Source: an uncultured bacterium | GTDB taxonomy: Bacteria > Verrucomicrobiota > Lentisphaeria > Victivallales > UBA1829 | Length of the DNA: 64,000 bases | Direction of reading: 5' to 3' | Assembly (NCBI GenBank): GCA_900548385.1 | Contig: URKJ01000001.1 | Coordinates: 72,360 to 136,359 of the forward strand | Shown here: positions 6,701 through 61,671 of the stretch, piece by piece | Position numbering within the stretch: the stretch's first letter is position 1 | Layout of the letters: the number at the start of each line of letters is the position of its first letter | Notes under the pieces: generated by a model | Seen by the model: only the letters and a program-made list of their open reading frames with translations | Told to the model about the DNA's origin: nothing | The model's database searches: none | Program-made: the position numbers and the translations under genes

Positions 6701-9700
6701 GTCTTATCGGCTTTCTGTTTGCCGGAGGAGAAGCCTTTTTCGTCAAAGGCTTCAACCGCCCATTCATAGACCGTATCTCCGAGGAGGACTTTGGTCATGG
6801 TGTCGTTCAGGAACGCTTTGACCGTGATGTTGGTCGATGTGTATTCCGGGGTGACTTCAATCCACTCCGTGGTGTTCTGCTGACGGACGTAGAGTTTGTA
6901 CCCTGAAAGCTGATAGGGCGATGAACTCGCTTCCGCCCAGGTGAAGTTGACGGTATAACCGTAATTTTCCACGGTTGCGCTGACATCCATTTCTCCGGTA
7001 GAGAGCAGGATCGTTCCCGGTTCTTCCGCCGTGATGGTCAGAGTCGGGGATTCAAAGACATTGCCGGCATTGTCTTCAACAAGAAGCCGCCAGTAAGTCG
7101 GGCATTCGTTGTTGTCGCCGACAACCGGAATATCCCGGGTGTCGATGGGCGGAGCCGTAACCGTGTAGGAGGACAGACCTTCCAGTTGAGCCGCATAACG
7201 GACATCAACGGTGATCCACTGCTTTTGTCCGCCGCTGGAGATTTTCTGGTACTGAACCGTATAGCTGTAAATGCCGGAAGGCGCGTCGATTTCCGAACTT
7301 TCCGGATCGTAGCCGCAGTTGACGGTCAGAGTCACCGCAAAATTTCTGCCGCCGGACGGATTTTCCACATACAGGTCATTTTTGTTTTCCGGTTCTTCCC
7401 AGGCGATGCTTGCCCCTGCCGGTTTGGTGATGTCTCCCTGCAGATCGCCGGATTTCAGGGCAGCGGATTCATTGCCGGAATAATCACGGGCGGTAATGTA
7501 ATAGCTGATCTTCTGATTCAGGCCGGAAAGACCGCTGATCACCGCTTTGTAATACTGATCCGAGTTCGGAGCAAGACGGATAGACTTATAGGAGGAGTCG
7601 CCTTCTTCTTTGTAGTAGAGCACATAGAATGCAATACCGGAACCGGTATCGTCCGCCAGTTTGCCATACCAGTTCAGGGTGACGGTATTCTTCGCATAAT
7701 TGTTCAGCGTCTGTTCCCCTGTATTCGGATTGGTTTCTTCCACACCGTCTGTTTTGACATAGTAGAAGTGGGGAGTGATTGCGATATTCTGACTGTTCGG
7801 AGTTGCAACCGGCGCTGTTGTATCGCCTCCGACCGTTGTGAAATGATAATTTTCACTCCAGATTTCATCCGCCGGTTCTCCGCCGGTCCCGTTGTTGGAA
7901 ACCGCTTTGACCCTCCAGTAATAATTGTTGCTGAAATCGACGTTGGACAGATAGAATTTATTGGTCGTGACACGGCGTGTCACAACTGTAAAGTTGGTAT
8001 TGTTTCCACTCCAGATCGCTTCCAGTTCCTCATCCGTCAAATTGGAGATGCTCTCGTCGTTGGTTGTAAAGAACTGGATCTCATAATATTGAAGTCCGGA
8101 TTCAAACGTATCACGCATATCATCCCACTGAAGAATGCTGACGGAATCGGCAAGCTGCCCGACCCGGAGATTCATCAGACCGGCAACCTGTGCCGTTTCT
8201 TCCTTGAGTGTGCCGTTTTCGATTTCGATTACATCGGACCATTCACTGGTCGTATAGGAACTGGTCGACGCAACATTTTTCAAACGGAGGCGGACTCTGA
8301 CCGCATCGCCCTGCTGAATATCGCTGAGCGTGTAAGAGGTCGCCAGATAATCCAGCGTGACAACGGTAGAGTTGCTCCAGCTGCCGTCTTTCTTTTTAAT
8401 GCTGTATTCCAGTTCATAACGGTTGGCATCCGTCAGGGCTTTGTTCAGCGCGGTATTCCATTCGACAATGAACTCTTCCGCTTCGGAGTCGATTCTTCCG
8501 GTTACGGTGAGGGTATCAATGCGTTCGGAGGAACCGGAAGCCGTATTGATGATTTCCGTCTGAATATTTTTGATCGTGTAGTCTGCCGGAACGGTGAAGC
8601 TGCTGCTTGTGCAGGGAACCGTGAGCTCGTAGGTTCTGGCTTTGCCTGTTTCATCGGTTACGATATTGCCGTTTCCGTCATACAGATTGTAGGTGATGTG
8701 GAGACTGTAATTGCTGTCATAGTTGAGCTTGTCGCGGTCGATGTCATTGGAGAATGTGTAGGAAATCACATTGCCGTTGATTTCCAGATTGACCGTGTTG
8801 GCAAGCCGTCCCTGATATGCCGTTGCCGATTTCGTTACTTCGACGGAGACCGTATTTCCCTGAACTCTGCCGGTGATACTCGTTCCATCGGTAAAGGTGA
8901 CAACCGGGCTGGAATTCATATTCAGCAGTTTTGCTTCTCCCTTGTAGACTACGGTCAGGTTTTTGCTGCCGCCGGCGACCATGCCGCTGTCAAAGAGCGT
9001 ATAAGTCACACCGCTTGCCGCATCGTTGAGGTCGACGACATAAGTCGTACTTTCTTCGATGAAACTGCCGTTGTAGACTTTTTCGTTGCGGATGTCTCCG
9101 TTGACGGAACCATATTGATTCAGCATGAACGTAACGTTTCTTCTTCCGCCCTGATCGGTGGCGTCTGAAATCAGTTCTCCATTGATCTGTGCGTTACTGT
9201 CAATATAGATTTCATCGGTTCCGGAACCAAGATTGATGTTTCCTGTGATCGTGGCTCCCGCTGCGATTTCAATGTGGTCATTTCCTCCGCGCCAGGTTGT
9301 AAGCGTGTAACCGCGTCCGTTTGCGGAGGATTTGGACGGCTGATAAGAATAATAGCCGGAATAGATGGCGTAGTCGCCCGCTGTTCTTCCGACATTGATG
9401 TCGGAAGAAATGCGGATGTTGGTGGCTCCGGAATCCCGGATCATCAGACCGACTTTAATTGCATTGGTTCCGGTTACGGTAATATCCCCGATAATATCGA
9501 ACGAGGAGGTCTGGACGTTGAAGACGGAATCCACATTATTGACGAATTTGTCAATCTGAGCGCCGATAGCCAACCCGGTTTCAACTGTGAGATTGATATT
9601 CGCCGCCAAAGAACCTGCGTTCAGCGTTTCCGCCTTGATGCCGATCACCGTTGCATAAGCTCTTTCGCCGGCTTCCGCTCCGCTGAGGTTCATTGTGATA

Positions 9701-11256
9701 TTCGAGTCAAACACACCGGTTCCGGAACCGACGGTGATCGTATTTCCCGCATAAATGCCGTAGAAGTTTCCTGTCCAGCTGTCGATCGCCGGAGTCAGGG
9801 AGGAACTGCTGTCCCAGACGACGGAAATATTTCCGGACAGGTAGTTTGAAACGGTGATGGAGTCGCTGAAATAGAGACCGCCGGCGGAAAGGACAACGGC
9901 TGTCCCCGTACCGTCCGCCGGTTGCTGCGCGGAGAAAGAAAGACCCCGGATTGCGGTGTTGATGTCTCCAAGGAAAGAGCCGGTCACACTGAAGTTTTGT
10001 GCGGTCAGGCTGTATGCTTTCAAATCAATGGAGAGGCTTGCTTTCTGATTATCTCCCTTCGCATGAGCGGAAACCGTGATATTCTGGAGGGTCGTGTTGA
10101 CCTCGGCCTCGAACCCTTTTTTCATTTCAATGGCATTGGCTGCCCGGATTCCATAAACGCCGATTTGATTGCCTGTGGCGGATCCTGCCATGGAATCGGA
10201 AGCATAAACAGTTCTCTGCAGAAGCTCACCGGAAATGAGCATCTGTTCTGCGCCGGCAAGATCGTTGAACTGTTCCTGTGTGTATACACGCTTATTGTCC
10301 GGCTCCACACTTGTGCGGGGATAATAAGATCCGCCTACCAACTCGTAATCCTTTTTTTGATTCGGGCTGAGTGCGTTGTATTCCTCTTCAGTGATCCGTC
10401 TGTAATAACGGATTTCGGATGAATCGGAAGACACCAGGCTGGTTTCCGCCCGGATTTCGATACTTTCCGTTTCGACCGTGATGGATCCTTTGGTTGCGCC
10501 GTTTTTCTGGATACCGAAACGTCCATCGGCGACAATACTTCCTGTATCGGCCCACAATCCTTGCAGGGTGATCGTGTTGTTATTGGCTGCGGCGCTCTGG
10601 AAGCAACGGATGATTGCGGTCTGTTTTGCCGTAATGTCTCCGATGAAGTTGTTGTAAAGTTCAACGGAGTTTGCGCGCAGAGTCGCTGTTGTGATTGTAT
10701 TGTCGCTGGAGTTGTTGACCGGCTTGCCATCTTTGTCCCTTAACCCGGTCAGACTGGTCGTATGATGGGTCGAGATCGTGCCGACGAGGTCGGAAACAAC
10801 CCGGAACGTTCCGCCGGAAGACTGGAATGTCCCGAATTCATAGGTCCCGGAGGTGGGGACCCGTTCCGTGCTGGCATTTTGCGAAATGTTATGTGAAAAC
10901 TCCGTATTGATGACGAGGCGGTCGTCTGAATACTGGGAGGTTTCATTGTGTCCGTTCTGCCGCTGGATATCCCCTGTCTGGGCGGAGAGATTCAAGCTGC
11001 CGCCGGAGGTGAATGCGGCAACATACAGAGTGCTGGGCTTATCCTCTTTATCGGTTCCGCTAAAGGAGATATTGCCCTGAGCGTAATTGCCGGCGATCGC
11101 CAACTCTCCGCCGGAAACGGTGATTTGACTGATTCCATCCGTTCTGCCGCCGCCGGAAGTGCTATCGTCCCCCGGAGGAAGCAGGAACACGTTTGTTCCG
11201 CTGATTGTACCTCCTTGCGGAGTAAAATAAATTGAGTAAAGATCGGAATCCGCCAT
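3766..11256 (-). CDS. Giant (2496 aa) surface/adhesin-type protein: beta-helix-like N-terminal region, array of FN3-like modules, four C-terminal PPC-like modules
   Basis: Single uninterrupted ORF. Strong RBS (AGGAGG, 8 nt before ATG 11256). The N-terminal ~700 aa are rich in G/S/T/N repeats (GNISFSG, GNINLGSGTDEIYIDSNAQINGEL), like autotransporter/Pmp passenger beta-helices. The middle has recurring W..(x)D..SG(I/L)..Y modules (e.g. TLNWYGKLADDTGSGIAFYVLYY, LTWSGAVDPNGAAGEPVSGLKEYNLYF), typical of FN3-like domains. The C-terminus has DYYKF-type pre-peptidase C-terminal (PPC) modules. Confidence 0.9.
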   Translation of the reverse strand: MADSDLYSIYFTPQGGTISGTNVFLLPPGDDSTSGGGRTDGISQITVSGGELAIAGNYAQGNISFSGTDKEDKPSTLYVAAFTSGGSLNLSAQTGDIQRQNGHNETSQYSDDRLVINTEFSHNISQNASTERVPTSGTYEFGTFQSSGGTFRVVSDLVGTISTHHTTSLTGLRDKDGKPVNNSSDNTITTATLRANSVELYNNFIGDITAKQTAIIRCFQSAAANNNTITLQGLWADTGSIVADGRFGIQKNGATKGSITVETESIEIRAETSLVSSDSSEIRYYRRITEEEYNALSPNQKKDYELVGGSYYPRTSVEPDNKRVYTQEQFNDLAGAEQMLISGELLQRTVYASDSMAGSATGNQIGVYGIRAANAIEMKKGFEAEVNTTLQNITVSAHAKGDNQKASLSIDLKAYSLTAQNFSVTGSFLGDINTAIRGLSFSAQQPADGTGTAVVLSAGGLYFSDSITVSNYLSGNISVVWDSSSSLTPAIDSWTGNFYGIYAGNTITVGSGTGVFDSNITMNLSGAEAGERAYATVIGIKAETLNAGSLAANINLTVETGLAIGAQIDKFVNNVDSVFNVQTSSFDIIGDITVTGTNAIKVGLMIRDSGATNIRISSDINVGRTAGDYAIYSGYYSYQPSKSSANGRGYTLTTWRGGNDHIEIAAGATITGNINLGSGTDEIYIDSNAQINGELISDATDQGGRRNVTFMLNQYGSVNGDIRNEKVYNGSFIEESTTYVVDLNDAASGVTYTLFDSGMVAGGSKNLTVVYKGEAKLLNMNSSPVVTFTDGTSITGRVQGNTVSVEVTKSATAYQGRLANTVNLEINGNVISYTFSNDIDRDKLNYDSNYSLHITYNLYDGNGNIVTDETGKARTYELTVPCTSSSFTVPADYTIKNIQTEIINTASGSSERIDTLTVTGRIDSEAEEFIVEWNTALNKALTDANRYELEYSIKKKDGSWSNSTVVTLDYLATSYTLSDIQQGDAVRVRLRLKNVASTSSYTTSEWSDVIEIENGTLKEETAQVAGLMNLRVGQLADSVSILQWDDMRDTFESGLQYYEIQFFTTNDESISNLTDEELEAIWSGNNTNFTVVTRRVTTNKFYLSNVDFSNNYYWRVKAVSNNGTGGEPADEIWSENYHFTTVGGDTTAPVATPNSQNIAITPHFYYVKTDGVEETNPNTGEQTLNNYAKNTVTLNWYGKLADDTGSGIAFYVLYYKEEGDSSYKSIRLAPNSDQYYKAVISGLSGLNQKISYYITARDYSGNESAALKSGDLQGDITKPAGASIAWEEPENKNDLYVENPSGGRNFAVTLTVNCGYDPESSEIDAPSGIYSYTVQYQKISSGGQKQWITVDVRYAAQLEGLSSYTVTAPPIDTRDIPVVGDNNECPTYWRLLVEDNAGNVFESPTLTITAEEPGTILLSTGEMDVSATVENYGYTVNFTWAEASSSPYQLSGYKLYVRQQNTTEWIEVTPEYTSTNITVKAFLNDTMTKVLLGDTVYEWAVEAFDEKGFSSGKQKADKTFTLDGYVPPPESFTFKNEQLVSVYENDMLNITISWSIGSGIPTGYELKRAVAGSGVYETFMTADASATKFNFTVSPNAKYDYVIVARDTNYPDVPVTSKVLSTMTDVTKPVFTSSNTTLTDLTGNNYQLTWSGAVDPNGAAGEPVSGLKEYNLYFSTSSTLDPGKAICITVGGATNYTLTRDILLANGISEGTYNWWVGAKDWAGNEGYLQGQGSFFVKLTPPKGEFTDMDTTITVSYEMVDDPTVSNGAQVRQPTSISVKFDMDSTFTDAVKYRIELASSADFASDYLLLSEEFTGSSFTLSTDNNGIAYIAGMAQGKNGYYSTYNDVPDIYWRVCAIDSYGNETVYSKTNVFKLADKDLDRSLNDYYAPDQVELYAPEEVEGSNGTLWNLEWSPVFDPFGIYTYEIALSNGVDAPLLFYTQPHINDTTVVIGGKELPVSAGTYTVTVTAIDGSGKRSPVSNSQTVHCGVPNPIYPGSGTSIMDPEGHTNASATPDRSYSATITSTIGTEGNVEHYYRYDGVEKNGRLNLSITGLSQKVKITLYADNQSGKWKKLKSFTVNAGGGTLLSDYLLASNLYYIKVEAMDKKKFNTQTSYVLNFDSTYFPDWTPNKGFGDQSEEIILTTTDSQKTGSISGFVGYLEAQDYYVINSDIAGSLNLSVSTNAKVKVTVYNADYRKITSASVKAGQYSNIFKKPALCPSGKVYIVVESGDKGKGKQNADYTIGVSDNLFQPATANNDTGSAQSVLLDVNGHGLFSGGWVGYGDKVDYYKFTSALNGAVELGITEVESKIKVTLYDTTGKKLKSKTIKGTPDAKYATADIFGKDVLLKAGQEYYISVESGDKGKGYQNSFYNLSINESYAPASRGNNVKENAMALTAGQTTSDWVGYNEPSDFYKITLDKESYLDLNFNFSGKVSLKMTSEYGGKSGNVSLIKTDSGYSSKSMLAAGEYFVEIRAKSPNNVNSWSNSYNLAYSTR
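3769..5247 (-). repeat. Four tandem PPC-like (pre-peptidase C-terminal type) beta-sandwich modules encoded at the 3' end of the giant gene
   Basis: The last 493 aa contain four ~115-130 aa units. Each has an aromatic motif ((E/D)HYYRY, QDYYVI, VDYYKF, SDFYKI), a K(V/I)K(V/I)T(L/V)Y strand, and a Y(Y/I)(I/V)(K/V/S)VE...Y.(L/I) end. The units are diverged at DNA level. Confidence 0.7.
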
Positions 11257-14543: not shown

Positions 14544-16418
14544 TTAATGGAGAACGGGAGGATAACGGTGTGTGCCGTGGGGCGGATCGCACCGGTCTTC
14601 ATTCGTCGGGATGACTTCGTCCGGTTTTTCCGGATCCGGTTCCCACAGAGGGGTTTCGAGCCAGGTGATGCCGCTCTGACGCCACGCCTGGTCGCTGAGT
14701 TTTTTCAGCATTGTGTGATAGAACCCGAATTTGTTCTGCATGTCCTGCGGGATTTCGTCAAGCGAGTTGACCGTTCCCAGTTTGGGCAGATATTCCACGA
14801 TGAATTCAAACCAGAGATAATCCGCCAGCTGGTTGCGTCCGGGATCTTCCAGCGAGGTCGGTATGATGGCGCTGTTGGTGAAGACCGGCAGGACGATTCC
14901 GGAAAGATGCGGCGGCTGGAGGTCGTTATCCACGGAAAGCGCGCCGAACGGTTTCGCCACGGAATAGGCGTAAATATGCGGCGCGTTGTGCTGGAGACGG
15001 CTCTGTGCGTAATCCAGCCGGTTTTCACCGGATCCGGTTTGAAGATATTCCGTGGTTTCGCCGGATGTTTTCGGCATGAAGCTGTTCCGGAAGATGTCGC
15101 CGAGACGTTTATCCTTGTCCCCGTTGACGCCGAGAGTTCCGGTTACCGTAACTGTTTCCGTTTCGATGTCCATGCGGGACACTGCGCCGGAATAGTAAAG
15201 CGCCTGTTTTTTGAACGGTGCGGAAAGGTAGTCTTCCCAGAGTGAGGTCTGTGTCTGGTCATAGCTGCGCCACCGCCAGTTGTAGTATGCCCAGCTGAGC
15301 GCGGGGAGGGGATTGAGCTTGCGGTCCCTGTCGCCGTTCGGGGTATCGACGATTTCGCCGTCCCGGTTGTAGACCGGATCGAACAGATCGTAATGGTCCA
15401 TGAGTTTGGTTGCGTTGTAACCGGCTTTTTTCAGCTGGTCGTCGATCAGGGAACTTTCTTTCAGAACGTTCCAGGTGTTGCTCTGTGCGTTTTTGATTTC
15501 CACGCCGACCGGCAGGTATTCGCTTTCCTGCCGGAATGTCGCGTCTTCATCGGTGACCAGGTTTCCCCACCAGTTGGAGGCGTCGAAGTTCATGCGCAGG
15601 AGCTCTTTCAGCCAGCACCAGTAATTTGCCTGAATCGCATCATAGATATACCGGGACTGGAGGTATCCGGCAAAATCGTTTCCGGTCGGCGGAACGGTTT
15701 TGACTCTGGGTGAGCCGAGCAGCTGCGCGTTCGGCAGAACGGCGATTCCTTTGGAGGTGTCGCCGCCGTCGTTCAGCAGGATGGTGTCGAGAGTGCCGAG
15801 GTACGGGGCTTTCCAGTTGTAGCCGAACATGTTCCGTCTGATATAATCGGGCGTCATATATTGTTCAAAGACGTTTTTCCGGTTTACGTTGGTCGGATTT
15901 TCCACATAGAGCATTTGATTGCGGACCGCTTCGCCGTATGACTCGTTATAATTGAGTCCGTTGTTTTTTGCGGTCTGCTGTGCCGCTCCGAATCCGATCA
16001 GCGGGACGATGAACAGCGCTCTCTGCTGAATCTGGGAAACGGTATCGGAGGCGATTTCCAGTTCTTTCAGCTGAGTGGCGCGTTTCTGTATGGCGTCTTC
16101 TTCGTTTTCAACATGCAGAAAGCTGTCCGGCGTTTGCTGCATTCCCGTCCCGAACATGGAATCGGAGATCAGAACGGTTGTGGCTTTGACAAGATTCAGT
16201 TCTCCGATCAGGTTCAGCGTATGTCTCTGCCAGTTGGCGCCGGTCAGAGCCGCCGCATCGACGGCGTTCTGGGATTTGACTTTGGCGCGGATTACGTTGG
16301 AAATGTCAAGCAGGAGAAATATCGCCAGCGTCAGGATCAGCAGAGCGATCAGCGCCAGGATCAGAACCTGTCCGCGCTCCCGGTGTTTTCTGTAAAAACG
16401 CGTTTTCATCATGATCAT
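14544..16418 (-). CDS. TadG-like / Tad-domain pseudopilin-like protein (624 aa)
   Basis: N-terminus RERGQVLILALIALLILTLAIFLLLDISNVIRAKVKSQNAVDAAALTGA matches the Tad (putative Flp pilus assembly TadE/G-like) N-terminal domain. Start ATG 16418 forms an ATGA overlap with the upstream gene stop. No vWA MIDAS motif seen. Confidence 0.8.
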   Translation of the reverse strand: MIMMKTRFYRKHRERGQVLILALIALLILTLAIFLLLDISNVIRAKVKSQNAVDAAALTGANWQRHTLNLIGELNLVKATTVLISDSMFGTGMQQTPDSFLHVENEEDAIQKRATQLKELEIASDTVSQIQQRALFIVPLIGFGAAQQTAKNNGLNYNESYGEAVRNQMLYVENPTNVNRKNVFEQYMTPDYIRRNMFGYNWKAPYLGTLDTILLNDGGDTSKGIAVLPNAQLLGSPRVKTVPPTGNDFAGYLQSRYIYDAIQANYWCWLKELLRMNFDASNWWGNLVTDEDATFRQESEYLPVGVEIKNAQSNTWNVLKESSLIDDQLKKAGYNATKLMDHYDLFDPVYNRDGEIVDTPNGDRDRKLNPLPALSWAYYNWRWRSYDQTQTSLWEDYLSAPFKKQALYYSGAVSRMDIETETVTVTGTLGVNGDKDKRLGDIFRNSFMPKTSGETTEYLQTGSGENRLDYAQSRLQHNAPHIYAYSVAKPFGALSVDNDLQPPHLSGIVLPVFTNSAIIPTSLEDPGRNQLADYLWFEFIVEYLPKLGTVNSLDEIPQDMQNKFGFYHTMLKKLSDQAWRQSGITWLETPLWEPDPEKPDEVIPTNEDRCDPPHGTHRYPPVLH

Positions 16419-17050
16419 TCCAGATATGCGGTTGACTGTTTTGCCATTTTCGTTTCTCCGGAGATGTTCATTTTTCCGCCGGTCTGAGGCTGGAATGCTC
16501 CGCGGAAAGGCATGACCCACGGATAATCCCTGAATTCGGAGCGGGCGGTGAACGTGTCGCCCTGATGAGTCAGTCCGGTCTCGAAACTGGTTTTGTATTC
16601 GGAGAGGTCATTATTCTCTCCTTCCCTGTTCCACCAGTATTGATAGCGCAGGCCGTTCTGCCGTTGACGCATATAATCCAAAATGACCAGGCGTTCGTAG
16701 TAAAACTGTTCGATTGCCGTTTTGAAAGGCAGGGAATCGCTGTTTCCGTTGAGCAGATCGACCGGTGCGCGCATCTGTCCGGCGGCGGGAATGACTTTGA
16801 GGCGCGCCTCCCGCTGATAGGCGTCTTCGCGGAAACCGACCGTAGCCGAGCGCGCGGCGCGGAATGCCGCATAGTCCGTGACCATCTGAGCGACTGAATA
16901 GTAGAAGAACTGGAGCAGCCCGAATGTCAGCAGAAGGATCAGGAACATGCAGAGCATGGCTTCCACAATAGAGGAAGCCCGCTCTCCGGACCGGATTTGC
17001 GGGCGCAGTTTCCGCATTGGTTCTCTTTCGCGTGTGACGAAAGCGGTCAC
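16415..17050 (-). CDS. TadE-like pseudopilin
   Basis: GERASSIVEAMLCMFLILLLTFGLLQFFYY matches the TadE-like N-terminal motif (G-x4-E + hydrophobic helix). GTG 17050 overlaps the flp stop (GTGA); ATG 17017 is an alternative start. Confidence 0.8.
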   Translation of the reverse strand: MTAFVTREREPMRKLRPQIRSGERASSIVEAMLCMFLILLLTFGLLQFFYYSVAQMVTDYAAFRAARSATVGFREDAYQREARLKVIPAAGQMRAPVDLLNGNSDSLPFKTAIEQFYYERLVILDYMRQRQNGLRYQYWWNREGENNDLSEYKTSFETGLTHQGDTFTARSEFRDYPWVMPFRGAFQPQTGGKMNISGETKMAKQSTAYLE

Positions 17051-26278: not shown

Positions 26279-28363
26279 TTATGCTCCTTTGATTCTGCCG
26301 AACATATTGCCGAATTTCTTGGCGTTCAGCGATTCGGTGAACGATGATATTTTGGTGAGAGTGCTGCACGGATCCGTGGTCGGGTCCATGCAGTCCCCGT
26401 CGAGAGTGAGAAGCGGAAGACCGACATTGTCGAGCTCTTCGCGCAGGTGCTTGGCGAAACAGCTGTCGGAAAGTGAGCAGCGCCCGAAACCGTGATTGTA
26501 AAGAATGCAGCCGTTGAGCTGAGCTTTTTTCGCGGTTTCCAGAATGTAATGGACCCGGAGTTTCGGATCAAGATAACCGACTGTCAGCAGTTTGCGTGCG
26601 AGCGAGCGGTAAGGATCGGCGGGGTCCAGCCTGTCCCAGTCCACAAAGTTCACTTCTTCAAAAACGATCGGCGCGTTGCAGACCGTTTCGATATAATCGA
26701 GCACTTTTGTGTCGTAGAACGGCGGGAGGTGCAGCCAGAGCAGGCGGTGCGTATCTTCGATCCTGTAATGTTTTTCCGCCCATTCCTTTTTCCGGCAGAG
26801 TTCGTCATGGAACTGCTTCTGGATGTCGATCAGTTCCTGACGTCCCCAGAGCTGGGAGAAGAGAACGGCACTGTAAACGCCTTCGGCTCCGCGGATCAGC
26901 GGGGGACTCGTCCAGCGCAGTTCGTTGCAGCGTTTTGAAAGCTCCGCCGCCTGATTGGAGAGTTCGCAGGCTTCCGCGAGGCGCGCCGGATCCATTTTCA
27001 TGCCGAGCGCTTTTTCCATCAGATAGACCGCTTCCTGAAGTCCCTCGGCGATCTGATCGACGGAATAGGGATCGTCCGCGTTGATCGGCGTGTGAAGAGA
27101 GTAGAAACGGTCGGTGAAATTGTATTGGCGGGCGAGGTCCTGAAAGATCCGTTCCCCCTGCTGGCACGGCTGGGAGGTGGAAACTCCGAATGCGGGCTGC
27201 GGGAGCTCGGTGCCTTCCTGGACGCGCAGGAAGGAACAGGTTTCGCCGGCGAATCCCTTGTAGGCGGCGATGTCGAGTGCTTTTTTGGTGCGTTTGTAGT
27301 TCCGGGCAAAGAGTGCGGCGTAGGTTTCCAGAGTCAGCATCTTGACGCCGAGAGCATTGAGGATCTCGGTCGGAAAGAAGAGGTTCCGCCAGACCATCGG
27401 GCCGCCTTTGCTCTTGGAGAAGAATTCCCGCCGCGTGTTGTTGGCGCGCATGGAAACCGATTTCATCGGCGTTGGCTCGTACTGGACTCTGTCCATGCTG
27501 AGCGAACCTTTGAGCTGGGTATATTTCCGTGCGAGACAGGCGGCTCCGAGTGCCCCCATCACCTGATGAAATTCGGGAATGATGATGTTGTTGCCGGTGA
27601 TTTCTTTCAGATAATAGGCGACCGCCCGGTTGGAGGCGACACCGCCCTGAAACACGATGTCGCCTTTGTAATTGAAGAGCAGCTGACCGACGCCGGAAAT
27701 GATGGTCCGTGCCTGTGCGCGGCATGCGCCGCCGATGACCTGTCCGAGCGGCATACGGTTTTTGAACTTGTTGATGGAAGTCGCGCTGAGAACGGCGCAG
27801 ACCGAGGAAAATTCGAGATCGGTGTCATAATTGACCTTGTCCGCCATCTCTTCGACGGGAATTCCGAGTTTGAGAGCGACACTGTCGAGGAACGCGCCCG
27901 TTCCGGCGGCGCAGATGCCGCTCATCTTCGAGGTCCACATTCCCATCTTTTCGTTGTAGATCATCGCTTTGCTGTCTTGACCGCCGACGTCGAGGATCGC
28001 TTTGACATGCGGATGATAGTGCAGGGCTCCGGCGACGTGGGCGGAGACTTCGCTGACCTGGAAATCGTAATTGATGAAGCGTTTCATGCCTTCGACGATC
28101 TGGCTTCCGGTGACGACGGTGCAGTGAATGTCCTCCGGTTTCATCCCGGCGTCGGCGAGAAACGAAAGCACGGTTTTCTTGAGCGCTCCGAGATTGCAGT
28201 TGCCGCATTCCGAACACTTGCTGGAACAGGTGACGCGGCCGGATTCGACCGGCTTCGTGCGCTGATAGGTCACATGTTCGACTTTTCCGTCTTCTGTCAT
28301 GATGACGGCTTTGAACGTGGTGGAACCGATGTCGATTCCCAGATAACGGTTTTGGTTTGCCAT
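26279..28363 (-). CDS. Fusion protein: BcrAD/BadFG-type ATPase (2-hydroxyacyl-CoA dehydratase activase-like) plus 2-hydroxyacyl-CoA dehydratase (HgdA/B-like) domain
   Basis: N-terminal half: YLGIDIGSTTFKAV, DVGGQDSK, ICAAGTGAFLD, FQGGVASN (ASKHA activase motifs). C-terminal ~380 aa are Cys-containing and dehydratase-component-like. An extra CSSKCSECGNC insert is present. Confidence 0.8.
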   Translation of the reverse strand: MANQNRYLGIDIGSTTFKAVIMTEDGKVEHVTYQRTKPVESGRVTCSSKCSECGNCNLGALKKTVLSFLADAGMKPEDIHCTVVTGSQIVEGMKRFINYDFQVSEVSAHVAGALHYHPHVKAILDVGGQDSKAMIYNEKMGMWTSKMSGICAAGTGAFLDSVALKLGIPVEEMADKVNYDTDLEFSSVCAVLSATSINKFKNRMPLGQVIGGACRAQARTIISGVGQLLFNYKGDIVFQGGVASNRAVAYYLKEITGNNIIIPEFHQVMGALGAACLARKYTQLKGSLSMDRVQYEPTPMKSVSMRANNTRREFFSKSKGGPMVWRNLFFPTEILNALGVKMLTLETYAALFARNYKRTKKALDIAAYKGFAGETCSFLRVQEGTELPQPAFGVSTSQPCQQGERIFQDLARQYNFTDRFYSLHTPINADDPYSVDQIAEGLQEAVYLMEKALGMKMDPARLAEACELSNQAAELSKRCNELRWTSPPLIRGAEGVYSAVLFSQLWGRQELIDIQKQFHDELCRKKEWAEKHYRIEDTHRLLWLHLPPFYDTKVLDYIETVCNAPIVFEEVNFVDWDRLDPADPYRSLARKLLTVGYLDPKLRVHYILETAKKAQLNGCILYNHGFGRCSLSDSCFAKHLREELDNVGLPLLTLDGDCMDPTTDPCSTLTKISSFTESLNAKKFGNMFGRIKGA

Positions 28364-43849: not shown

Positions 43850-43858
43850 GTTTTTGCT

Positions 43859-43884
43859 GTAACCTTTTCCGGTTGTATGCGTTT
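43859..43884 (+). promoter_or_regulatory. ECF-sigma-like promoter motif TGTAAC-N16-CGTT upstream of GG-leader gene 1
   Basis: TGTAAC 43859-43864 and CGTT 43881-43884. About 40 nt (CTGTAACCTTT..CCG.T.TA..GCGTTT.CA.GGTG.AA) are shared with the upstream region of the second GG-leader gene (61646-61672, minus). Confidence 0.45.
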
Positions 43885-43947
43885 TCATGGTGAAAACGGT
43901 TGCAGAACAGCTGAAACCGGTAAAAAAAATGAAATGGAGTGTGCGTT

Positions 43948-44235
43948 ATGAAAACAATCTGTGAACTGAGTGATTCCGAGCTTGAAAACGTGGTCGGCGG
44001 TCTGCATTACTATGTGGACAAGAGCAATCCGGTACAGGGAAAAAACGGTCGGCTCTGCTACAATATTTATTCAAGTTCGGTGGAGGCTTCCGGAGATTGG
44101 CAGAACCTGTTCAAAGGAAAAGGCGCAAAGGATATGTCGATCAGCATGTCAATGTCTCACAAGGTGATCCCTGTGGATCAATATGATGCGTTCCGTGAAC
44201 GTGCGGCGGGCAAGCACACGTTCCACGAGTGCTGA
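43948..44235 (+). CDS. Small secreted-type protein with double-glycine (bacteriocin-type) leader
   Basis: MKTICELSDSELENVVGG|LHYY... fits the LSxxELxxVxGG leader consensus. GGAG lies 8 nt before ATG 43948. Hairpin terminator follows directly. Confidence 0.6.
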   Translation: MKTICELSDSELENVVGGLHYYVDKSNPVQGKNGRLCYNIYSSSVEASGDWQNLFKGKGAKDMSISMSMSHKVIPVDQYDAFRERAAGKHTFHEC

Positions 44236-44244
44236 TTGCGCGAT

Positions 44245-44273
44245 CCGGAGCCGGAGATCCGGCTCCGGTTTTT
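44245..44273. terminator. Rho-independent terminator (shared by convergent genes)
   Basis: CCGGAGCCGG-AGAT-CCGGCTCCGG followed by TTTTT. Confidence 0.8.
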
Positions 44274-44277
44274 CTGT

Positions 44278-47200
44278 TTATTCCGGAATCCAGAATCCGA
44301 AATTGTGGCGGAACTGGTGATTGAATCTGGTTCCGCTCCAGGTTTTTTGAAGACGGCGCCTTTTGCCGTCGTTGTCGTTGACCGAAATATCAAACGATAC
44401 CGGAGTGCCCGGAGCCTGACGCAGTTCCCGCCACGGGATTTCCAGTACGGCGGCGTAACCGTTTTCCGTGTCCGTGAGTTTCCAGCGGATGGAGGAGAGG
44501 TCGACGTCGCCGCTTTTGTCCAGACGTGCCGGTTTGCCCTCCGCGCCGGCGGTCATATACAGCCGGAAGGTGTCTTTCCGGTATTCTTTCCGTTCCATAT
44601 CCGCGAGCGGGGCGCGGTCGAAATACAGCTCAATGCAGTCGCCGTTCCAGAATTCCGGAGGAGAATATCTGCCGCGTTTCACGTCGCGCACCTGAATGTT
44701 CAGCCGGAACATTTTACTGTCTCCGGAAGCCTGAAAGGATGCGGAAAACGGATCGTCGTTCTCCGCTTTTCCGGTAGTGACCTGCGTAATTTGCGCGGTT
44801 TCTCCGGAGCGCAGGAAACGTTGAGCTTCCACGGGAACGGAAACGGTCCGTGTGACTTTTCCGTCGTAGATCATCAGTTTGACCGTTCCGCCGGGCAGGA
44901 CGGAGCCTTTCGTTTCGACCGGGATCAGCAGAACGGCGGTTTTTCCCGCCGGAAGCCGCAGGGAGGCGGAGCCCGGTTTTGCCGCTTTTGCCGAGGGCGC
45001 GGAGAGCAGCCGTACTTTCAGTTCCTGTGCTTCCAGCGTGCTGCGGAATTCCAGCGCAAGGACCGGCTTTCCCTGTTCCGCGAACCAGCGGGCACGGGTG
45101 ATTTCATATCCGTTTTCCGGTACGATCCTGCTTTCATTCAGCATTTTCCGCAAGGCGTCGAGCCCCTGCCTGCCGCGGATATACATCGGGGTGTTGGTCA
45201 GCGGCATGGCGGGAACCGCTTTTACCGGGTTGCCGAATACGTCGAACAGGTCTACAGTTTGAGGATTGGAGAACGTGATTGAGAATTTCCGGTTCGGCGT
45301 GTAATTCCAGACCGCCGCCATCGGCTGCTTTCCGGGGATTGTGTACAGATATGCCGTGGTTCCGAGCGGCGTATTGAGTTTGCCTGCGGGAACCGCGCGT
45401 TCCATCAGACGGGCGAACGCATTGGCGGCAACGTAAATATCGGTGGGAATCAGGCGCCTCTGAACGCGTTCCCTGATATAGCCGTAACCGGGATTGCGGT
45501 CGCCCCGGTAGCTTGTTTCACAGGGCAGAAGCGTTTCCTGTTTCACTCCTTCCCCGAGGTCGAGCAGAACGCGGCGGATGAAACTTTGCGCGGAAACGAT
45601 TCCATTGGTTACGGCGTCTGCATTGTGCCGCTGCACCGTGTAATAAAGTTCCGTGTTCCAGAGCGGCAGACCTTTGCGGTATTTGGCGATGATCCGCTTG
45701 ATGTCCCGGACTGCCTCGTGTGCGGGATAAGGCGAATGTTCCTCGCGGGAAGAGTAGGGGTGAAAGGAAACGATGTCTGTGTACTGATAGCCGCCGAGTT
45801 TGCCGAACCGCTCCAGAAAATCTCCCATCTGCCCGCCGAGGTCGCCGGTGACGTTCGGGGCGATGACGCGGATCGCCGGGTCAATTTTCCGGCACTCTTC
45901 AAATGCGATCTTTGCAAGTTTGACATAATCCTCCGGCGAGGTCGTCAGGTTGGCTTCATTCAGGATTTCCCAGTACCGGATACGGCCTTTGAAATGGGAA
46001 ACCGTCGCGCGGACATAGTTCCGCCAGTCGTCAAGATTCGGCATGATCGCCGGTTTGCCGTGCATTTTAAAGGTGGAGCTCAGCGTGCCGCGCCGCTGTG
46101 CCCATTCCGGCAGATAACGTTCCAGCAGAACGTTGCCGAGAACACCGAGCAGAACATTGCCGTACCCGAGCCGCTGATTCACAAAACGGTCGGCGAGGCG
46201 GAAATCGAATTTCCCCTGTTCCGGCTCCACGGTCGCCCACTCGAAAATCCGGTATACACCGTTGCCGATCCGGTTGATCCGGTAGCCCTGATTGCGGTTG
46301 ATCCGGTGATAATCCGCTTCATCCGACTCCAGCAGCTGAAAGAACGCTTTTCCGCCGTTGATGTTCGGACAGCCGAAATGGAATCCCTCTTCGACTCCGA
46401 GTACAAAATCGCGGTCCGGGTGAAACGGTTCCGGCGTGTATTTGCCGGAGAACGCATAGAGAAACGGCAGCACCCGTTCCTGTTTGCCGTTGAGCATAAA
46501 AACCGCTTCCGTTGAGTATACGCCGTAAGGACGCATCGGAACGGTGAACGTTTTCGACGCTGTTCTGCCTGCCGGAACGGTCAGTTCCGCCGGACGTTCC
46601 GTCAGAGCTTTTCCGGTATAGTCGTCACGGTCGCGGAAAAGAAACTTCACGGTTCTGTCGTTCTTTCCGTAATTGATTCCGGTGAGGGTGAAGGTCAGCG
46701 GCTGTTCGCCGTCGATATGCAGATGGCGCGGAGCCGTGAGCGTGAATTCCATATCGCTTTTCAGCGAGAACGGCGTTGCCTGTGTGCCGGGTTCCACCTG
46801 AAGCGCGTCGAACCAGACGGTCGCATCGCTGTCTTCGCCCCACAGGAAATCAAGAAGGTACGATTTATGACCGTTCGGCGGCAGAAACGTGTAGGTATAG
46901 CGTTTCCAATCGGTCGAGAGCGTGACGGTTCGGGACGGATTGAACCAGTCCCGTGCGGCTCTGCCGTTCTTTTCCGCCGGGATGATGGAGATCGGCAGAT
47001 AGCGGAGTTTGACCGGCTTGGAACTTTTCGCATAGAAACTGAGCGTGTACGGCTTGCCGGGCGTTACGCTGAAGTCCGGTGAACGCAGAACGGCGGGAGT
47101 CGCGTCCGGATTGTCGAAACGCAGACTCTGTCTGCCGTGGACCCTGGTGTTTTGATCCGGTACGGGCGGCAGATATTTTACTTCTTCCGGCTGCATCGGG

Positions 47201-61277: not shown

Positions 61278-61610
61278 TTATCCCAGCAGGGCTTTGGCCT
61301 TGTCAGGTGAAAAATTGACCCATTGACCGTTGTTGTCCAGAATATCAATGGAAGTCACTTCCGCTTTGGAGAACTGCCTGCGGAGTGTTGTTTCCGAAGA
61401 TGTTCCCATGAAAGAAACATCGTGTCCCATCACGGCCCGGACCAGCGGATCACTGGAATGAATCCTGACGCGGAGCCCCTGTGCTCCGCTTTTCCCCGTA
61501 AAAACCTGCAGATTATTCTGCTGGATGAAGTTCTGGTTGAACACTCCGCCGACAACCGTGTCGAGGTCTTCCTTGCCGAGTTCCTGAATCTTGTCATTGA
61601 ATTCTTTCAT
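61278..61610 (-). CDS. Small secreted-type protein with double-glycine (bacteriocin-type) leader, apparent paralog of 43948..44235
   Basis: MKEFNDKIQELGKEDLDTVVGG|VFNQ... fits the LxxxDLxxVxGG consensus. AAAGGAA RBS. Core shares GK(N/S)G...I(Y/H)SS...D(M/V)S...Q(Y/F) landmarks with the other GG protein. Confidence 0.6.
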   Translation of the reverse strand: MKEFNDKIQELGKEDLDTVVGGVFNQNFIQQNNLQVFTGKSGAQGLRVRIHSSDPLVRAVMGHDVSFMGTSSETTLRRQFSKAEVTSIDILDNNGQWVNFSPDKAKALLG

Positions 61611-61645
61611 TTTGCATTCCTTTCAGTTAATTGTTACACCTTGTA

Positions 61646-61671
61646 AACGCAGTATACGGTGAAAGGTTACA
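61646..61671 (-). promoter_or_regulatory. ECF-sigma-like promoter motif TGTAAC-N16-CGTT upstream of GG-leader gene 2
   Basis: Minus strand reads TGTAAC (61671-61666), 16 nt, CGTT (61649-61646). The flanks are conserved with 43858-43900. Confidence 0.45.

Follow-up and report, generated by a model that had tools for sequence, protein, structure and literature searches.

GG1, a 95-aa precursor encoded by a human-gut Victivallales bacterium, appears from its sequence to represent a new kind of secreted protein. We consider it probable (about 0.75) that GG1 is the cargo of a sigma-factor-controlled secretion module with a C39-peptidase ABC exporter (PCAT), the parts of which are dispersed in the genome. 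The gene lies in the 64,000-nt stretch of DNA analysed here (hereafter the window), and its sequence features are conserved. In relatives, sigma gene, promoter, cargo and exporter are syntenic, and every part is present in the window's species. Scaffolds of the metagenome assemblies ERZ28572939 and ERZ28572851 match the window at 99.98% identity, and NCBI GCA_037064665.1, which carries the annotation 'Victivallales bacterium', matches it at 99.0%. In the collection, 214 indexed assembly blocks contain a protein identical to GG1.

In the proposed mechanism, a dedicated ECF sigma factor of 168 aa, the gene of which lies outside the window, would bring RNA polymerase to TGTAACC-N15-CGTT at 43858–43883, resulting in a monocistronic GG1 mRNA that ends at the hairpin at 44245–44268. 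The C39 domain of an NHLP-type exporter, which consists of an HlyD-like adaptor, PCAT, a second ABC subunit and Peripla_BP_6 and whose genes form a third locus with a housekeeping-type promoter in front, would recognize the 18-aa leader of the 95-aa precursor. After a cut behind G18, the folded, basic and hydrophilic 77-aa protein would leave the cytoplasm for the periplasm or the medium; the parts found do not include an outer-membrane component. A second double-glycine protein, GG2 (61278–61610), and a 71-aa ORF beside the sigma gene would belong to the same regulon. The features of the window are as follows.

43858–43883, plus strand: predicted ECF-type promoter of GG1; −35 TGTAACC (43858–43864), then TTT; −10 GCGTT (43879–43883)
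43884–43947, plus strand: 5′ leader of the GG1 transcript; conserved TTTCATGGTGAAAAC (consensus TTTCAGGGCAGAAAC) right after the −10; GGAG ribosome-binding site at 43936–43939
43948–44235, plus strand: GG1 ORF, 95 aa; ATG at 43948, stop at 44233–44235; MKTICELSDSELENVVGG followed by LHYY...HTFHEC
43948–44001, plus strand: double-glycine leader of GG1, 18 aa, MKTICELSDSELENVVGG; predicted C39 cleavage after G18
44002–44235, plus strand: mature GG1 core, 77 aa (LHYYVDKSNPV...HTFHEC) plus stop; new small alpha/beta family
44245–44278, plus strand: intrinsic terminator of GG1; hairpin CCGGAGCCGG-AGAT-CCGGCTCCGG, then a T-run
61278–61610, minus strand: GG2, 110 aa; double-glycine leader MKEFNDKIQELGKEDLDTVVGG followed by VFNQNF...; 88-aa core unrelated to GG1
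61646–61671, minus strand: predicted ECF-type promoter copy of GG2, TGTAACCTTTCACCGTATACTGCGTT; precedes this second double-glycine ORF

GG1 gene, leader and core

Since GGAG is located at 43936–43939, 8 nt before the ATG at 43948, this ATG was taken as the start of GG1; the in-frame GTG at 43939, upstream of it, is a less likely alternative. Transcription is predicted to start near 43890. The 5′ leader matched no Rfam family (best hit at E = 0.29 and 21 bits; cut-off 106), and a structured RNA in this region was rejected on that ground. The terminator stem contains 10 bp, nine of them G-C pairs (44245–44268), and is followed by TTTTT. The G+C content is 0.42–0.47 over the GG1 gene versus 0.58–0.62 in the flanks. 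An earlier note on this DNA had described the 95-aa ORF with a double-glycine leader, its own terminator hairpin and its AT-richness relative to the flanking genes, and all three descriptions hold. The absence of a PCAT, an immunity gene and modification enzymes from the window, also stated there, was confirmed: tblastn with sigma, HlyD, PCAT, ABC2 and Peripla_BP_6 queries gave no match within the window, Pfam detected no C39 domain in its large ORFs, and neither a small membrane ORF nor an immunity gene adjoins GG1. Modification enzymes were found neither in the window nor in the orthologous operons. GG1 is not linked to a transporter in the window or its 10-kb extensions, and an exporter just outside it was rejected, as 10-kb extensions on the GG2 side contained no sigma or PCAT.

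The GG1 leader has Gly at −1 and −2, Val at −4, Leu at −7, Glu at −8 and Leu at −12, and fits the rule for PCAT substrates (15–25 aa; a GG, GA or AG end; hydrophobic residues at −4, −7 and −12; an acidic residue at −8). The leader-HMM search suggested in the earlier note gave a split result: the motif residues are present, but TIGR01847 scores 15.3 bits and narrowly fails its cut-off of 15.7. With the Pfam Lactococcin leader model, the leader reaches 15 bits (cut-off 23.1; E = 0.028), TIGR03798 gives 12.2 bits (cut-off 32.3) with only the last 13 leader residues aligned, the cyanobacterial CTB-family bacteriocin model NF038167 gives 16.4 bits on the leader only, below its cut-off of 32, and TIGR03793 does not match. 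GG or AG occupies the same position in all full-length GG1 homologs, down to 33–36% identity, and the loss of the motif among homologs that the earlier note had envisaged is not seen; the sole homolog noted without a leader, P0451, is a 73-aa core-only fragment. Comparison of GG1 with GG2 by hhalign indicates a homologous leader with 95.8% probability over 23 columns only. Homology of the two cores was rejected, since the alignment covers these leader columns alone. The leader seems to be functional and not accidental, as it is kept in full-length homologs and is common to the unrelated GG2 core, and we infer that a C39 peptidase would cut after G18.

If the likeness of the leader were fortuitous, GG1 would be cytoplasmic or its ORF would not be a real gene, in keeping with the TIGR01847 score just under the cut-off and with a 64-kb window that has no exporter. 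This reading is effectively refuted by the leader shared between homologs and an unrelated core, by the GG1 orthologs in operons with PCAT genes (see below) and by purifying selection on the core (dN 0.056, dS 0.537, dN/dS about 0.10; two orthologs). The identical protein in the 214 assembly blocks and a confident AF2 model also speak against it.

The GG1 core (77 aa, 8.73 kDa, pI 8.6, GRAVY −0.69, two Cys) is predicted to fold well, with an AF2 pLDDT of 84.6 and pTM of 0.76. It has no match in Pfam, NCBIfam, PADLOC, or PDB sequences or folds and is a new protein family, with about seven close clusters in total among 15 billion proteins. The best Foldseek hits were E = 0.7 in the PDB and E = 0.03 (TM 0.41) in BFVD; with matches this weak and an empty HMM search of PDB sequences, a fold assignment was rejected. 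The earlier note had proposed a new family and called for structure prediction, and both the missing matches and the model agree with it. Its claim on core size stands in part: the core is large compared with Gram-positive class II bacteriocins, but normal compared with class II microcins, which are about 5–10 kDa (PMC10233263).

Several further candidates were discarded. The large 'homologs' P0454–P0456, which came up in an exhaustive HMM search, are artefacts of repeats or low complexity. A zinc site of C37, H90, H93 and C95 (HTFHEC), as in zinc-binding anti-sigma factors, was rejected, as the distant homologs P0452 and P0453 lack the C-terminal His and Cys residues and conserve the xCY cysteine alone. 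A link to defence systems or phages was also rejected, PADLOC giving nothing for GG1 and weak noise for GG2.

ECF-type promoter and dispersed module

The 64 kb contain exactly two copies of the pattern TGTAACCTTT-N12-CGTT, one before GG1 and one before GG2, and 100 shuffles gave none. The TGTAAC and CGTT elements that the earlier note saw upstream of GG1 are there, but as TGTAACC-N15-CGTT at 43858–43883, one base off from its 43859–43884. In an ungapped alignment of the promoters of 12 genes from at least five species, TGTAAC, TTT and T-C-(G)-TT are invariant and the spacing is fixed, and the distant homologs P0452 and P0453 both keep the promoter and a GG/AG leader. An ECF sigma gene adjoins the promoter in L001, L021, L027 and L044. 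The fixed spacing and the position directly downstream of the ECF sigma gene in relatives bear out the assignment made in the earlier note, and the element is, as judged by sequence, an ECF-type promoter. For SigX, PMC8024623 quotes the consensus tgtAACnww / CGwCww. The GG1-type promoter resembles those of the Bacillus subtilis SigX/SigW class in the −35 TGTAAC and in a CG-containing −10 about 16 nt downstream, whereas its −10 is GCGTT(T/A)TCA instead of CGwC. The putative cognate sigma scores 80 bits with the general ECF model TIGR02937 (cut-off 42.9) and fails all specific ECF models, including SigX, SigW, SigM and SigZ.

In a related member of the Lentisphaeria, the GG1 ortholog P0004 (59% identity) lies in an operon with the order ECF sigma, TGTAACCTTTTTCCGTTCTCTCCGTT, GG1 ortholog, GG2 ortholog, HlyD, C39-ABC, ABC2, Peripla_BP_6, promoter and 69-aa ORF. 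L027 has the same gene order, the distant L044 again places a GG1-family gene behind a sigma gene and the promoter, and GG1 orthologs are linked to the transporter in L001–L006, L027, L044 and L047. GG2 orthologs adjoin the GG1 ortholog in the sigma/exporter operon. GG1 is missing in L022 and L023, which keep sigma and exporter, and GG2 is duplicated in L023. An ECF promoter before the exporter operon was looked for and not found; the sigma and exporter operons carry a sigma-70-like TTGAAA-N16/17-TATATT in place of the ECF motif, with N17 before the exporter operon. The cassette genes of the relatives, encoding the HlyD-like adaptor, the PCAT, the second ABC subunit and Peripla_BP_6, are contiguous. 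The HlyD protein scores 185.3 bits with TIGR03794 (cut-off 156.2), ABC2 712.9 bits with TIGR03797 (cut-off 709.4) and the PCAT 852.5 bits with TIGR03796 (cut-off 853.3). The exporter linked to the GG1 orthologs can thus be assigned as the NHLM cassette (TIGR03794, TIGR03796 and TIGR03797), with the PCAT 0.8 bit under the cut-off.

In the window's species, the parts are spread over at least four loci: the sigma gene with the 71-aa ORF, the export cassette, GG1 and GG2. The gene for sigma1 (P0126, 168 aa), an ortholog of MEI3040437.1, is followed by the promoter and then by the 71-aa ORF. From adjacency and conservation only, we infer that sigma1 would read the GG1-type promoter. The exporter of the species was identified through protein-cluster membership as HlyD-PCAT(P0367)-ABC2-PBP6, and the cluster representative of P0367 is 84% identical to the PCAT of L001. 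P0367 and P0409, both members of C39-ABC clusters, are located on the 4,556,201-nt contig of GCA_037064665.1, and the PCAT variant P0369 is on a 1,774,816-nt contig, equal in size to the scaffold matching the window at 99.98%. The earlier note had regarded a genome without any PCAT as fatal to its reading; the species has two C39 ABC exporters. The exporter is absent near GG1 because the module that forms one operon in relatives is scattered in the window's species, and this scattered secretion system still appears to be tied together by one shared promoter.

The second exporter belongs to a paralogous module (L046) with the order HlyD-PCAT(P0409)-ABC2-Peripla_BP_6-sigma2-Nif11-Nif11 and a promoter, GGTAACCTTTT...CGCATA (written out, GGTAACCTTTTCCGCTTCAACGCATA), similar to the GG1 type. 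Since this module is complete in the species, its promoter is related and PCATs are often promiscuous (PMC10233263), GG1 might be exported by the second module or by both exporters, and its promoter might be read by sigma2. We regard this as improbable: the −35 and −10 elements upstream of GG1 and GG2 agree at every base with the sigma1-type TGTAACC...GCGTTTTCA and not with the sigma2 variant, sigma2 shares only 39% identity with sigma1, and the GG1 and GG2 orthologs are physically linked to the sigma1-type cassette. We thus keep the sigma1 module as the probable export route of GG1.

The NHLM cassette as such has precedent in this group, Victivallis vadensis being already among its carriers (Haft et al. 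2010, PMC2887384). The word 'sigma' is absent from the text of that paper (PMC2887384), and our literature search did not find double-glycine cargo or NHLP cassettes linked to an ECF sigma. While the exporter of the GG1 orthologs is the cassette that serves NHLP/Nif11 precursors, and a classical module with Nif11 cargo is likewise present in the window's species, the GG1 leader is of the class II type with 18 aa, whereas the leaders of NHLP/Nif11 precursors are NHase- or Nif11-like with roughly 70 aa. The GG1 core is large and folded, whereas theirs are short and modified, and modification enzymes are not near GG1.

Role of the exported protein

GG1 is most likely an effector, unmodified and microcin-like, that serves in antagonism or in another extracellular function; this role is the weakest step of the model. 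Class IIa microcins have a 15–18-aa leader ending in GG or GA and an unmodified 5–10 kDa product, and are exported from a diderm cell by a C39 ABC transporter with an HlyD-type adaptor (PMC10233263). GG1 is similar to these microcins, such as microcin V (CvaC with CvaA/CvaB/TolC), in its leader, in an 8.73-kDa core without modification enzymes and in its predicted export route. On the other hand, its cargo genes are detached from the exporter and are predicted to be transcribed from a dedicated ECF-sigma promoter, the linked exporter has two ABC subunits and Peripla_BP_6, and the host belongs to the Victivallales, whereas the microcins are encoded on Enterobacteriaceae plasmids.

It is possible, but doubtful, that GG1 is itself a class IIa-microcin-like bacteriocin, an unmodified protein toxin of about 9 kDa that would leave the cell by the PCAT/MFP route and kill competitors among the gut bacteria. 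The 18-aa GG leader, the unmodified 8.7-kDa core and the PCAT with HlyD-type adaptor correspond to the parts by which class II microcins are defined (PMC10233263), cargo that varies by strain or species, with GG1 absent in L022 and L023 and GG2 doubled in L023, is typical of antagonism loci, and the GG1 gene is AT-rich relative to its surroundings. However, class II microcins normally have an adjacent immunity gene (PMC10233263), and the toxin reading is weakened because such a gene is missing beside GG1, both here and in the operon form; in the sigma-GG1-GG2-HlyD interval of L001, neither a small membrane ORF nor an immunity gene is present. The core, a folded alpha/beta domain of hydrophilic character, is not of the Gly/Ser-rich or hydrophobic type, and beyond the leader GG1 has no similarity to any microcin or other bacteriocin family.

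A role of GG1 as a regulator or signal instead of an effector, either as an exported anti-sigma or co-regulator or as an autoinducer sensed via Peripla_BP_6, seems unlikely. GG1 is small and soluble, GG1-family genes lie directly behind the ECF sigma gene in three lineages, which is the usual anti-sigma slot, and the cassette includes a conserved protein with a periplasmic-binding fold. Nevertheless, L022 and L023 keep sigma and exporter without GG1, GG2 with its unrelated core can fill the same slot, the candidate metal site at HTFHEC is not kept in distant homologs, and the sigma clade is accompanied much more regularly by a different small protein, which has the AFxLPxPxMPDF motif.

Double-glycine leaders, a PCAT and an alternative sigma also meet in one circuit in the streptococcal ComC/BlpC systems, in which double-glycine peptides are exported by ComAB/BlpAB as short pheromones; a two-component system senses the peptides and then induces ComX, the alternative sigma. 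In the GG1 system, however, the sigma is an ECF factor that appears to transcribe the cargo directly, and the cargo is folded and 77–88 aa long. We retain an extracellular effector as the preferred role of GG1.

Sigma clade and its small partner protein

Secretion-coupled sigma control is exemplified by FlgM and sigma-28. In Bordetella, the ECF sigma BtrS is antagonized by BtrA, which is secreted by the type III secretion system (T3SS) (PMC10732220, PMC7498569). The sigma clade of GG1 has a comparable layout: in most metagenomic relatives, the sigma gene lies in or beside type III secretion clusters and is followed by a conserved small ORF. The clade thus seems to be tied to secretion systems and not to the known envelope-stress sigmas, and its location in type III secretion clusters with a small partner suggests secretion-coupled control. 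The partner has no sequence similarity to BtrA or FlgM, and the machine in the GG1-type systems is a PCAT exporter, not a T3SS.

Relatives with a link to type III secretion have the partner motif DxLGxLVxxAFxLPxPPMPxF at the C-terminus of the small protein. In the branch linked to a PCAT, to which the window's species belongs, the motif is N-terminal and fused to a double-glycine-like leader (EL..DL..LAAAG) with a short tail. We tentatively consider that the exporter gates the sigma: the partner would be a putative anti-sigma that follows the logic of FlgM and BtrA and that has become a C39 substrate or pseudo-substrate in the PCAT branch, and the activity or occupancy of the exporter would set the activity of the sigma. 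If so, the state of the exporter would also control how GG1, GG2 and the gene of the partner itself are transcribed. A sigma checkpoint coupled to secretion would then be known for the first time from a PCAT or type I-like system, and a single regulatory module would have changed its machine from a T3SS to an ABC exporter. Since the same sigma clade serves type III clusters in relatives, with a small conserved partner, secretion-coupled sigma control outside flagellar and injectisome systems becomes a directly testable question.

The dedicated ECF sigma is predicted to add a transcriptional layer to an NHLP-type export cassette. Double-glycine cargo is usually sought beside its exporter, and GG1 and GG2 are orphaned and tied to theirs only by the shared ECF promoter. 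Promoter searches in gut bacteria of the PVC group could therefore reveal secreted proteins missed by neighbourhood-based tools. GG1 and GG2 define two new families of small proteins, predicted to be secreted, in a human-gut lineage that is abundant and has hardly been studied.

The GG1 and GG2 genes of the window

The 95-aa ORF with a double-glycine leader described in the earlier note (GG1) was confirmed, and a six-frame scan of the window found one further convincing double-glycine ORF, GG2.

Elements of the two genes (window coordinates)
43858-43883, promoter motif upstream of GG1
43948-44235, + strand, GG1 ORF (ATG 43948, stop 44233-44235), 95 aa, MKTICELSDSELENVVGG leader and 77-aa core ending HTFHEC
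44245-44268, GG1 terminator hairpin, 10-bp stem (9 GC), then a T-run
61278-61671, - strand, GG2 gene with the same ECF-type promoter
61610-61278, - strand, GG2 ORF, 110 aa, MKEFNDKIQELGKEDLDTVVGG followed by VFNQNF..., 88-aa core, pI 9.5

A GGAG lies 8 nt 5' of the GG1 ATG. By direct reading, the leader has glycine at positions -1 and -2, valine at -4, leucine at -7 and -12, and glutamate at -8, all fitting the double-glycine consensus, although the leader model TIGR01847, proposed earlier as a check, just fails (15.3 bits, cut-off 15.7) and formal HMM membership is narrowly missed; Pfam gave only a weak Lactococcin leader match. Mature GG1 (8.73 kDa, pI 8.6, two cysteines) is as hydrophilic as had been noted (GRAVY -0.69), and the gene's own terminator and its AT-richness were borne out, with G+C of 0.42-0.47 across the gene versus 0.58-0.62 in the flanks. 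The upstream TGTAAC...CGTT motif is also present, one base to the left of its earlier placement.

The neighbours of GG1 are unrelated: thioredoxin, TilS and a metallo-beta-lactamase-fold protein on the 5' side, and a convergent 1013-aa glycoside-hydrolase/CBM protein on the 3' side. The reported absence of an exporter holds, since tblastn detected neither a sigma factor nor HlyD, C39-ABC or any other ABC ATPase in the 64-kb window, and Pfam matched none of these among its large ORFs. Elsewhere in the window lie a very long, 2496-aa ORF (3766-11256, -), a 658-aa ORF (14544-16520, -) whose N terminus matches the TadE/G-like (Flp pilus assembly) domain PF13400 of Pfam (E = 1.6e-9), and an apparently ordinary 694-aa fusion of BcrAD/BadFG ATPase and 2-hydroxyglutaryl-CoA dehydratase D-component (26279-28363, -).

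A narrower form of the promoter motif, TGTAACCTTT-N12-CGTT, has just two occurrences in the window, before GG1 and GG2, and is found in 0 of 100 shuffles, and the two upstream regions align over TGTAACCTTT...TGCGTTT.CA.GGTG. In a profile comparison, the GG1 and GG2 families have the leader alone in common (23 columns, probability 95.8%), and their cores are unrelated. Since leader and promoter are kept while the cores differ, the two genes bear the signature of a putative common regulon and common export route.

Operon and dispersed arrangements

P0004, a GG1 ortholog with 59% identity, was found on 412 contigs and lies in one operon-like locus (L001) in 6 of 6 assemblies, including NCBI GCA_964320795.1.

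Order of the P0004 locus
Gene 1, ECF sigma factor, 173 aa
Element 2, promoter motif TGTAACCTTTTTCCGTTCTCTCCGTT, between the sigma gene and the GG1 ortholog
Gene 3, GG1 ortholog
Element 4, weaker motif, between the GG1 and GG2 orthologs
Gene 5, GG2 ortholog, leader identical in the GG1 and GG2 orthologs
Gene 6, HlyD-like adaptor, 432 aa
Gene 7, C39-peptidase ABC transporter (PCAT), 728 aa
Gene 8, second ABC subunit (ABC2), 861 aa
Gene 9, membrane-anchored Peripla_BP_6 protein (PBP6), 382 aa
Elements 10-11, promoter motif once more, then a 69-aa ORF

By NCBIfam, the transport genes are the NHLP ('NHLM') bacteriocin export cassette, with TIGR03794 at 185 bits (cut-off 156), TIGR03797 at 713 (cut-off 709) and TIGR03796 at 852.5 (cut-off 853.3). 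The cassette was defined by Haft et al., who already recorded Victivallis vadensis as a source (PMC2887384). Relatives keep the layout with varied cargo: GG1 and GG2 in L027, GG2 as the sole cargo of the two in L022, L049 and L050, and two GG2 paralogs in L023. The order in a distant AT-rich relative (L044) is HlyD-PCAT-ABC2-PBP6, promoter, 74-aa ORF, sigma gene, promoter and GG1-family gene, and the promoter is also found on the short contigs bearing the GG1 relatives P0452 and P0453. When 12 promoters from five or more species are aligned, TGTAAC, TTT and T-C-(G)-TT are invariant with ungapped spacing, and a conserved TCAGGGCAGAAAC lies 3' of the -10 element.

The membrane-anchored, ANF_receptor-like Peripla_BP_6 protein is a conserved fourth cassette gene in these PVC-group lineages (L001 16961-18109; L038 14772-15920; also L024, L025, L044 and L046) and falls outside the three families of the original NHLP definition. 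L024, from a horse-faeces MAG that bears the label Alphaproteobacteria, encodes a PCAT of 64% identity and has tandem short GG-leader genes (182-734, -), for example a 46-aa ORF with ...ELKDEELSKISAGG followed by VKDTDWNIDIRSSKTHKSE. Since each of these genes has TTGTAACCATTTT...TCCGTTACAC upstream, the pairing of promoter and cargo reaches much shorter cargo.

Scaffolds of two metagenome assemblies, ERZ28572939 and ERZ28572851, match the window at 99.98% identity; for NCBI GCA_037064665.1, the MAG of a 'Victivallales bacterium' in one contig of 4,556,201 nt, the figure is 99.0%. GG1 has one and the same chromosomal setting in 10 independent assemblies and is thus a stable gene rather than a mobile insert. 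The genome search for C39 ABC transporters proposed in the earlier note yields two PCATs in this species, placed with the sigma factor on the 4.56-Mb contig by cluster look-ups: the ortholog P0367 (MEI3039580.1; cluster representative 84% identical to the L001 PCAT) and P0409 (MEI3037932.1; cluster representative 52% identical). The L001 sigma likewise has an ortholog there, sigma1 (P0126, MEI3040437.1, 168 aa; 60% identity in tblastn). A PCAT variant, P0369, is on a 1,774,816-nt contig, and a scaffold matching the window at 99.98% is also 1,774,816 nt long.

Loci of the window's species outside the window
L021 9946-9973, TTGAAA-N16-TATATT before the sigma1 gene
L021 10001-10800, sigma1 gene, TGTAACC promoter and 71-aa ORF
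L038 8636-8664, TTGAAA-N17-TATATT before the exporter operon
L046 6946-15295, second intact module, headed by PCAT P0409

sigma1 is followed by TGTAACCTTTCCGTTTCCGGTGCGTT and the 71-aa ORF, and no exporter lies closer than 10 kb to the sigma1 gene; the cassette HlyD (428 aa)-PCAT (727 aa)-ABC2 (864 aa)-PBP6 (382 aa) stands by itself. No ECF motif was found upstream of this cassette; a sigma-70-like element is there instead, similar to that upstream of sigma1. TTGAAA-N16/17-TATATT is a possible consensus for housekeeping promoters in this lineage. Judged from these motifs, sigma1 and the exporter appear to be driven by a housekeeping-type promoter, and we infer that GG1, GG2 and the small ORF would be driven by the ECF motif.

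L046 encodes an HlyD-like protein (352 aa), PCAT (729 aa), ABC2 (955 aa), Peripla_BP_6 (381 aa), sigma2 (177 aa, 39% identical to sigma1) and two Nif11-family ORFs, the first of 97 aa with ...EEDMRRIVGG before a 22-aa core, the second of 76 aa. At the sigma2 stop codon, and overlapping it, is GGTAACCTTTTCCGCTTCAACGCATA; the variant promoter there reads GGTAACCTTTT...CGCATA, and those of GG1 and GG2 agree with the sigma1 variant. This second module in the same species indicates that the pairing of ECF sigma and NHLP cassette is recurrent in the lineage.

The GG1 family and its likely role

The GG1 family is very small. Among 5.8 billion cluster representatives, a word-indexed search retrieved four clusters (99, 91, 82 and 59% identity), and exhaustive HMMER of 1.84 billion representatives found two more true relatives, P0452 (AG leader, 36%) and P0453 (GG leader, 33%), and a 73-aa core-only fragment, P0451. 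Three further HMMER matches were repeat artefacts. The earlier note had considered that homologs might lack the GG motif; every full-length homolog retains the leader (GG, or AG in P0452). YY.D.S.P, G..CY..S, GD and GA are conserved, and the C-terminal HTFHEC is lineage-specific. Between the L001 and L027 orthologs, dN is 0.056 and dS 0.537 (ratio ~0.10); dS is saturated in comparisons with the window's copy.

The structure prediction suggested earlier gave an AlphaFold2 model with pLDDT 84.6 and pTM 0.76 from five sequences only.

Predicted elements of GG1 (AlphaFold2)
Residues 20-30 and 36-43, beta-hairpin
Residues 51-55, short helix
Residues 70-75, strand
Residues 76-86, helix
Residues 91-94, final strand

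With Foldseek, no significant match came from PDB (best E = 0.7) or from BFVD (best E = 0.03, TM 0.41), and neither the family HMM against PDB sequences nor PADLOC gave a match, in keeping with the new family proposed before.

Class II microcins have a 15-18-aa GG/GA leader and an unmodified 5-10 kDa product exported by PCAT and MFP (PMC10233263), and GG1 is alike in size and layout. The core is thus large, as had been remarked, but not unusual for a diderm cell. While this likeness favours a microcin-type toxin, GG1 is without an immunity gene and its core is hydrophilic and predicted to be folded, so we regard a toxin as rather doubtful. The best-supported model is that GG1 is probably a sigma-dependent cargo of the PCAT exporter (probability about 0.75).

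The component parts (double-glycine leader, C39 PCAT, NHLP cassette and ECF promoter) are all of known kinds. Our literature search found no description of a dedicated ECF sigma driving the cargo genes for an exporter of this type, of cargo genes dispersed as single-gene units united by an ECF promoter alone, or of the GG1 and GG2 core families.

Sigma1 relatives and the small protein that accompanies them

Relatives of sigma1 (48-63% identity) are encoded within type III secretion (T3SS) clusters, with secretin, HrpJ/TyeA, CesT and YscX in L042 and SctJ, SctL, SctN, SctO, SctR and SctS in L045. The L042 cluster has three TGTAACCTT...CGTA motifs, each before a gene, two of these genes being 5' of the T3SS genes named and the third being the sigma-adjacent small ORF. 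L042, L045 and many of L051-L126 place such relatives in or beside T3SS clusters of Kiritimatiellae- and Lentisphaerae-like gut or rumen bacteria. A metagenome scan gave 80 sigma loci, 21 with T3SS markers and 6 with NHLM markers. At least 330 nt beyond the sigma stop was available in 65 of the 80, and 40 of these 65 have, directly 3' of sigma, an 80-138-aa ORF ending (R/K)DDxLGxL(V/I/M)xxAFxLPxPPMPxF; two more such ORFs fall outside the regular expression behind this count. For the T3SS-linked ORFs, the C-terminal motif can also be written DxLGxLVxxAFxLPPPPMPxF. The 69-79-aa ORFs of NHLM-type loci, including the 71-aa ORF, have the same motif N-terminally (for example DFVDELMERAFSLPAPEMPDFS), then a double-glycine-like segment (ELKDEELDFLAAAG; ELSMDDLDMLAAAG) and a charged tail of 16-24 aa; the 71-aa ORF of L021 reads MKPDKPVPDIDNLMEKAFQLPPPPIPDFS...ELSMDDLDMLAAAG followed by KNAFQETLRKQRKESHDGL. 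No Pfam or NCBIfam model matched the small partner proteins.

Conserved small genes that share a transcript with an ECF sigma stand in the classical anti-sigma position, and FlgM is one example of a secreted anti-sigma. Another, secreted by a T3SS, is established in Bordetella BtrS/BtrA (PMC10732220, PMC7498569). Given this position and the BtrA and FlgM precedents, the PCAT-linked small protein, such as the 71-aa ORF, is a tentative candidate for an anti-sigma recognised by the exporter's peptidase. The sigma clade lies outside the coordinates of GG1 yet bears on its regulation.
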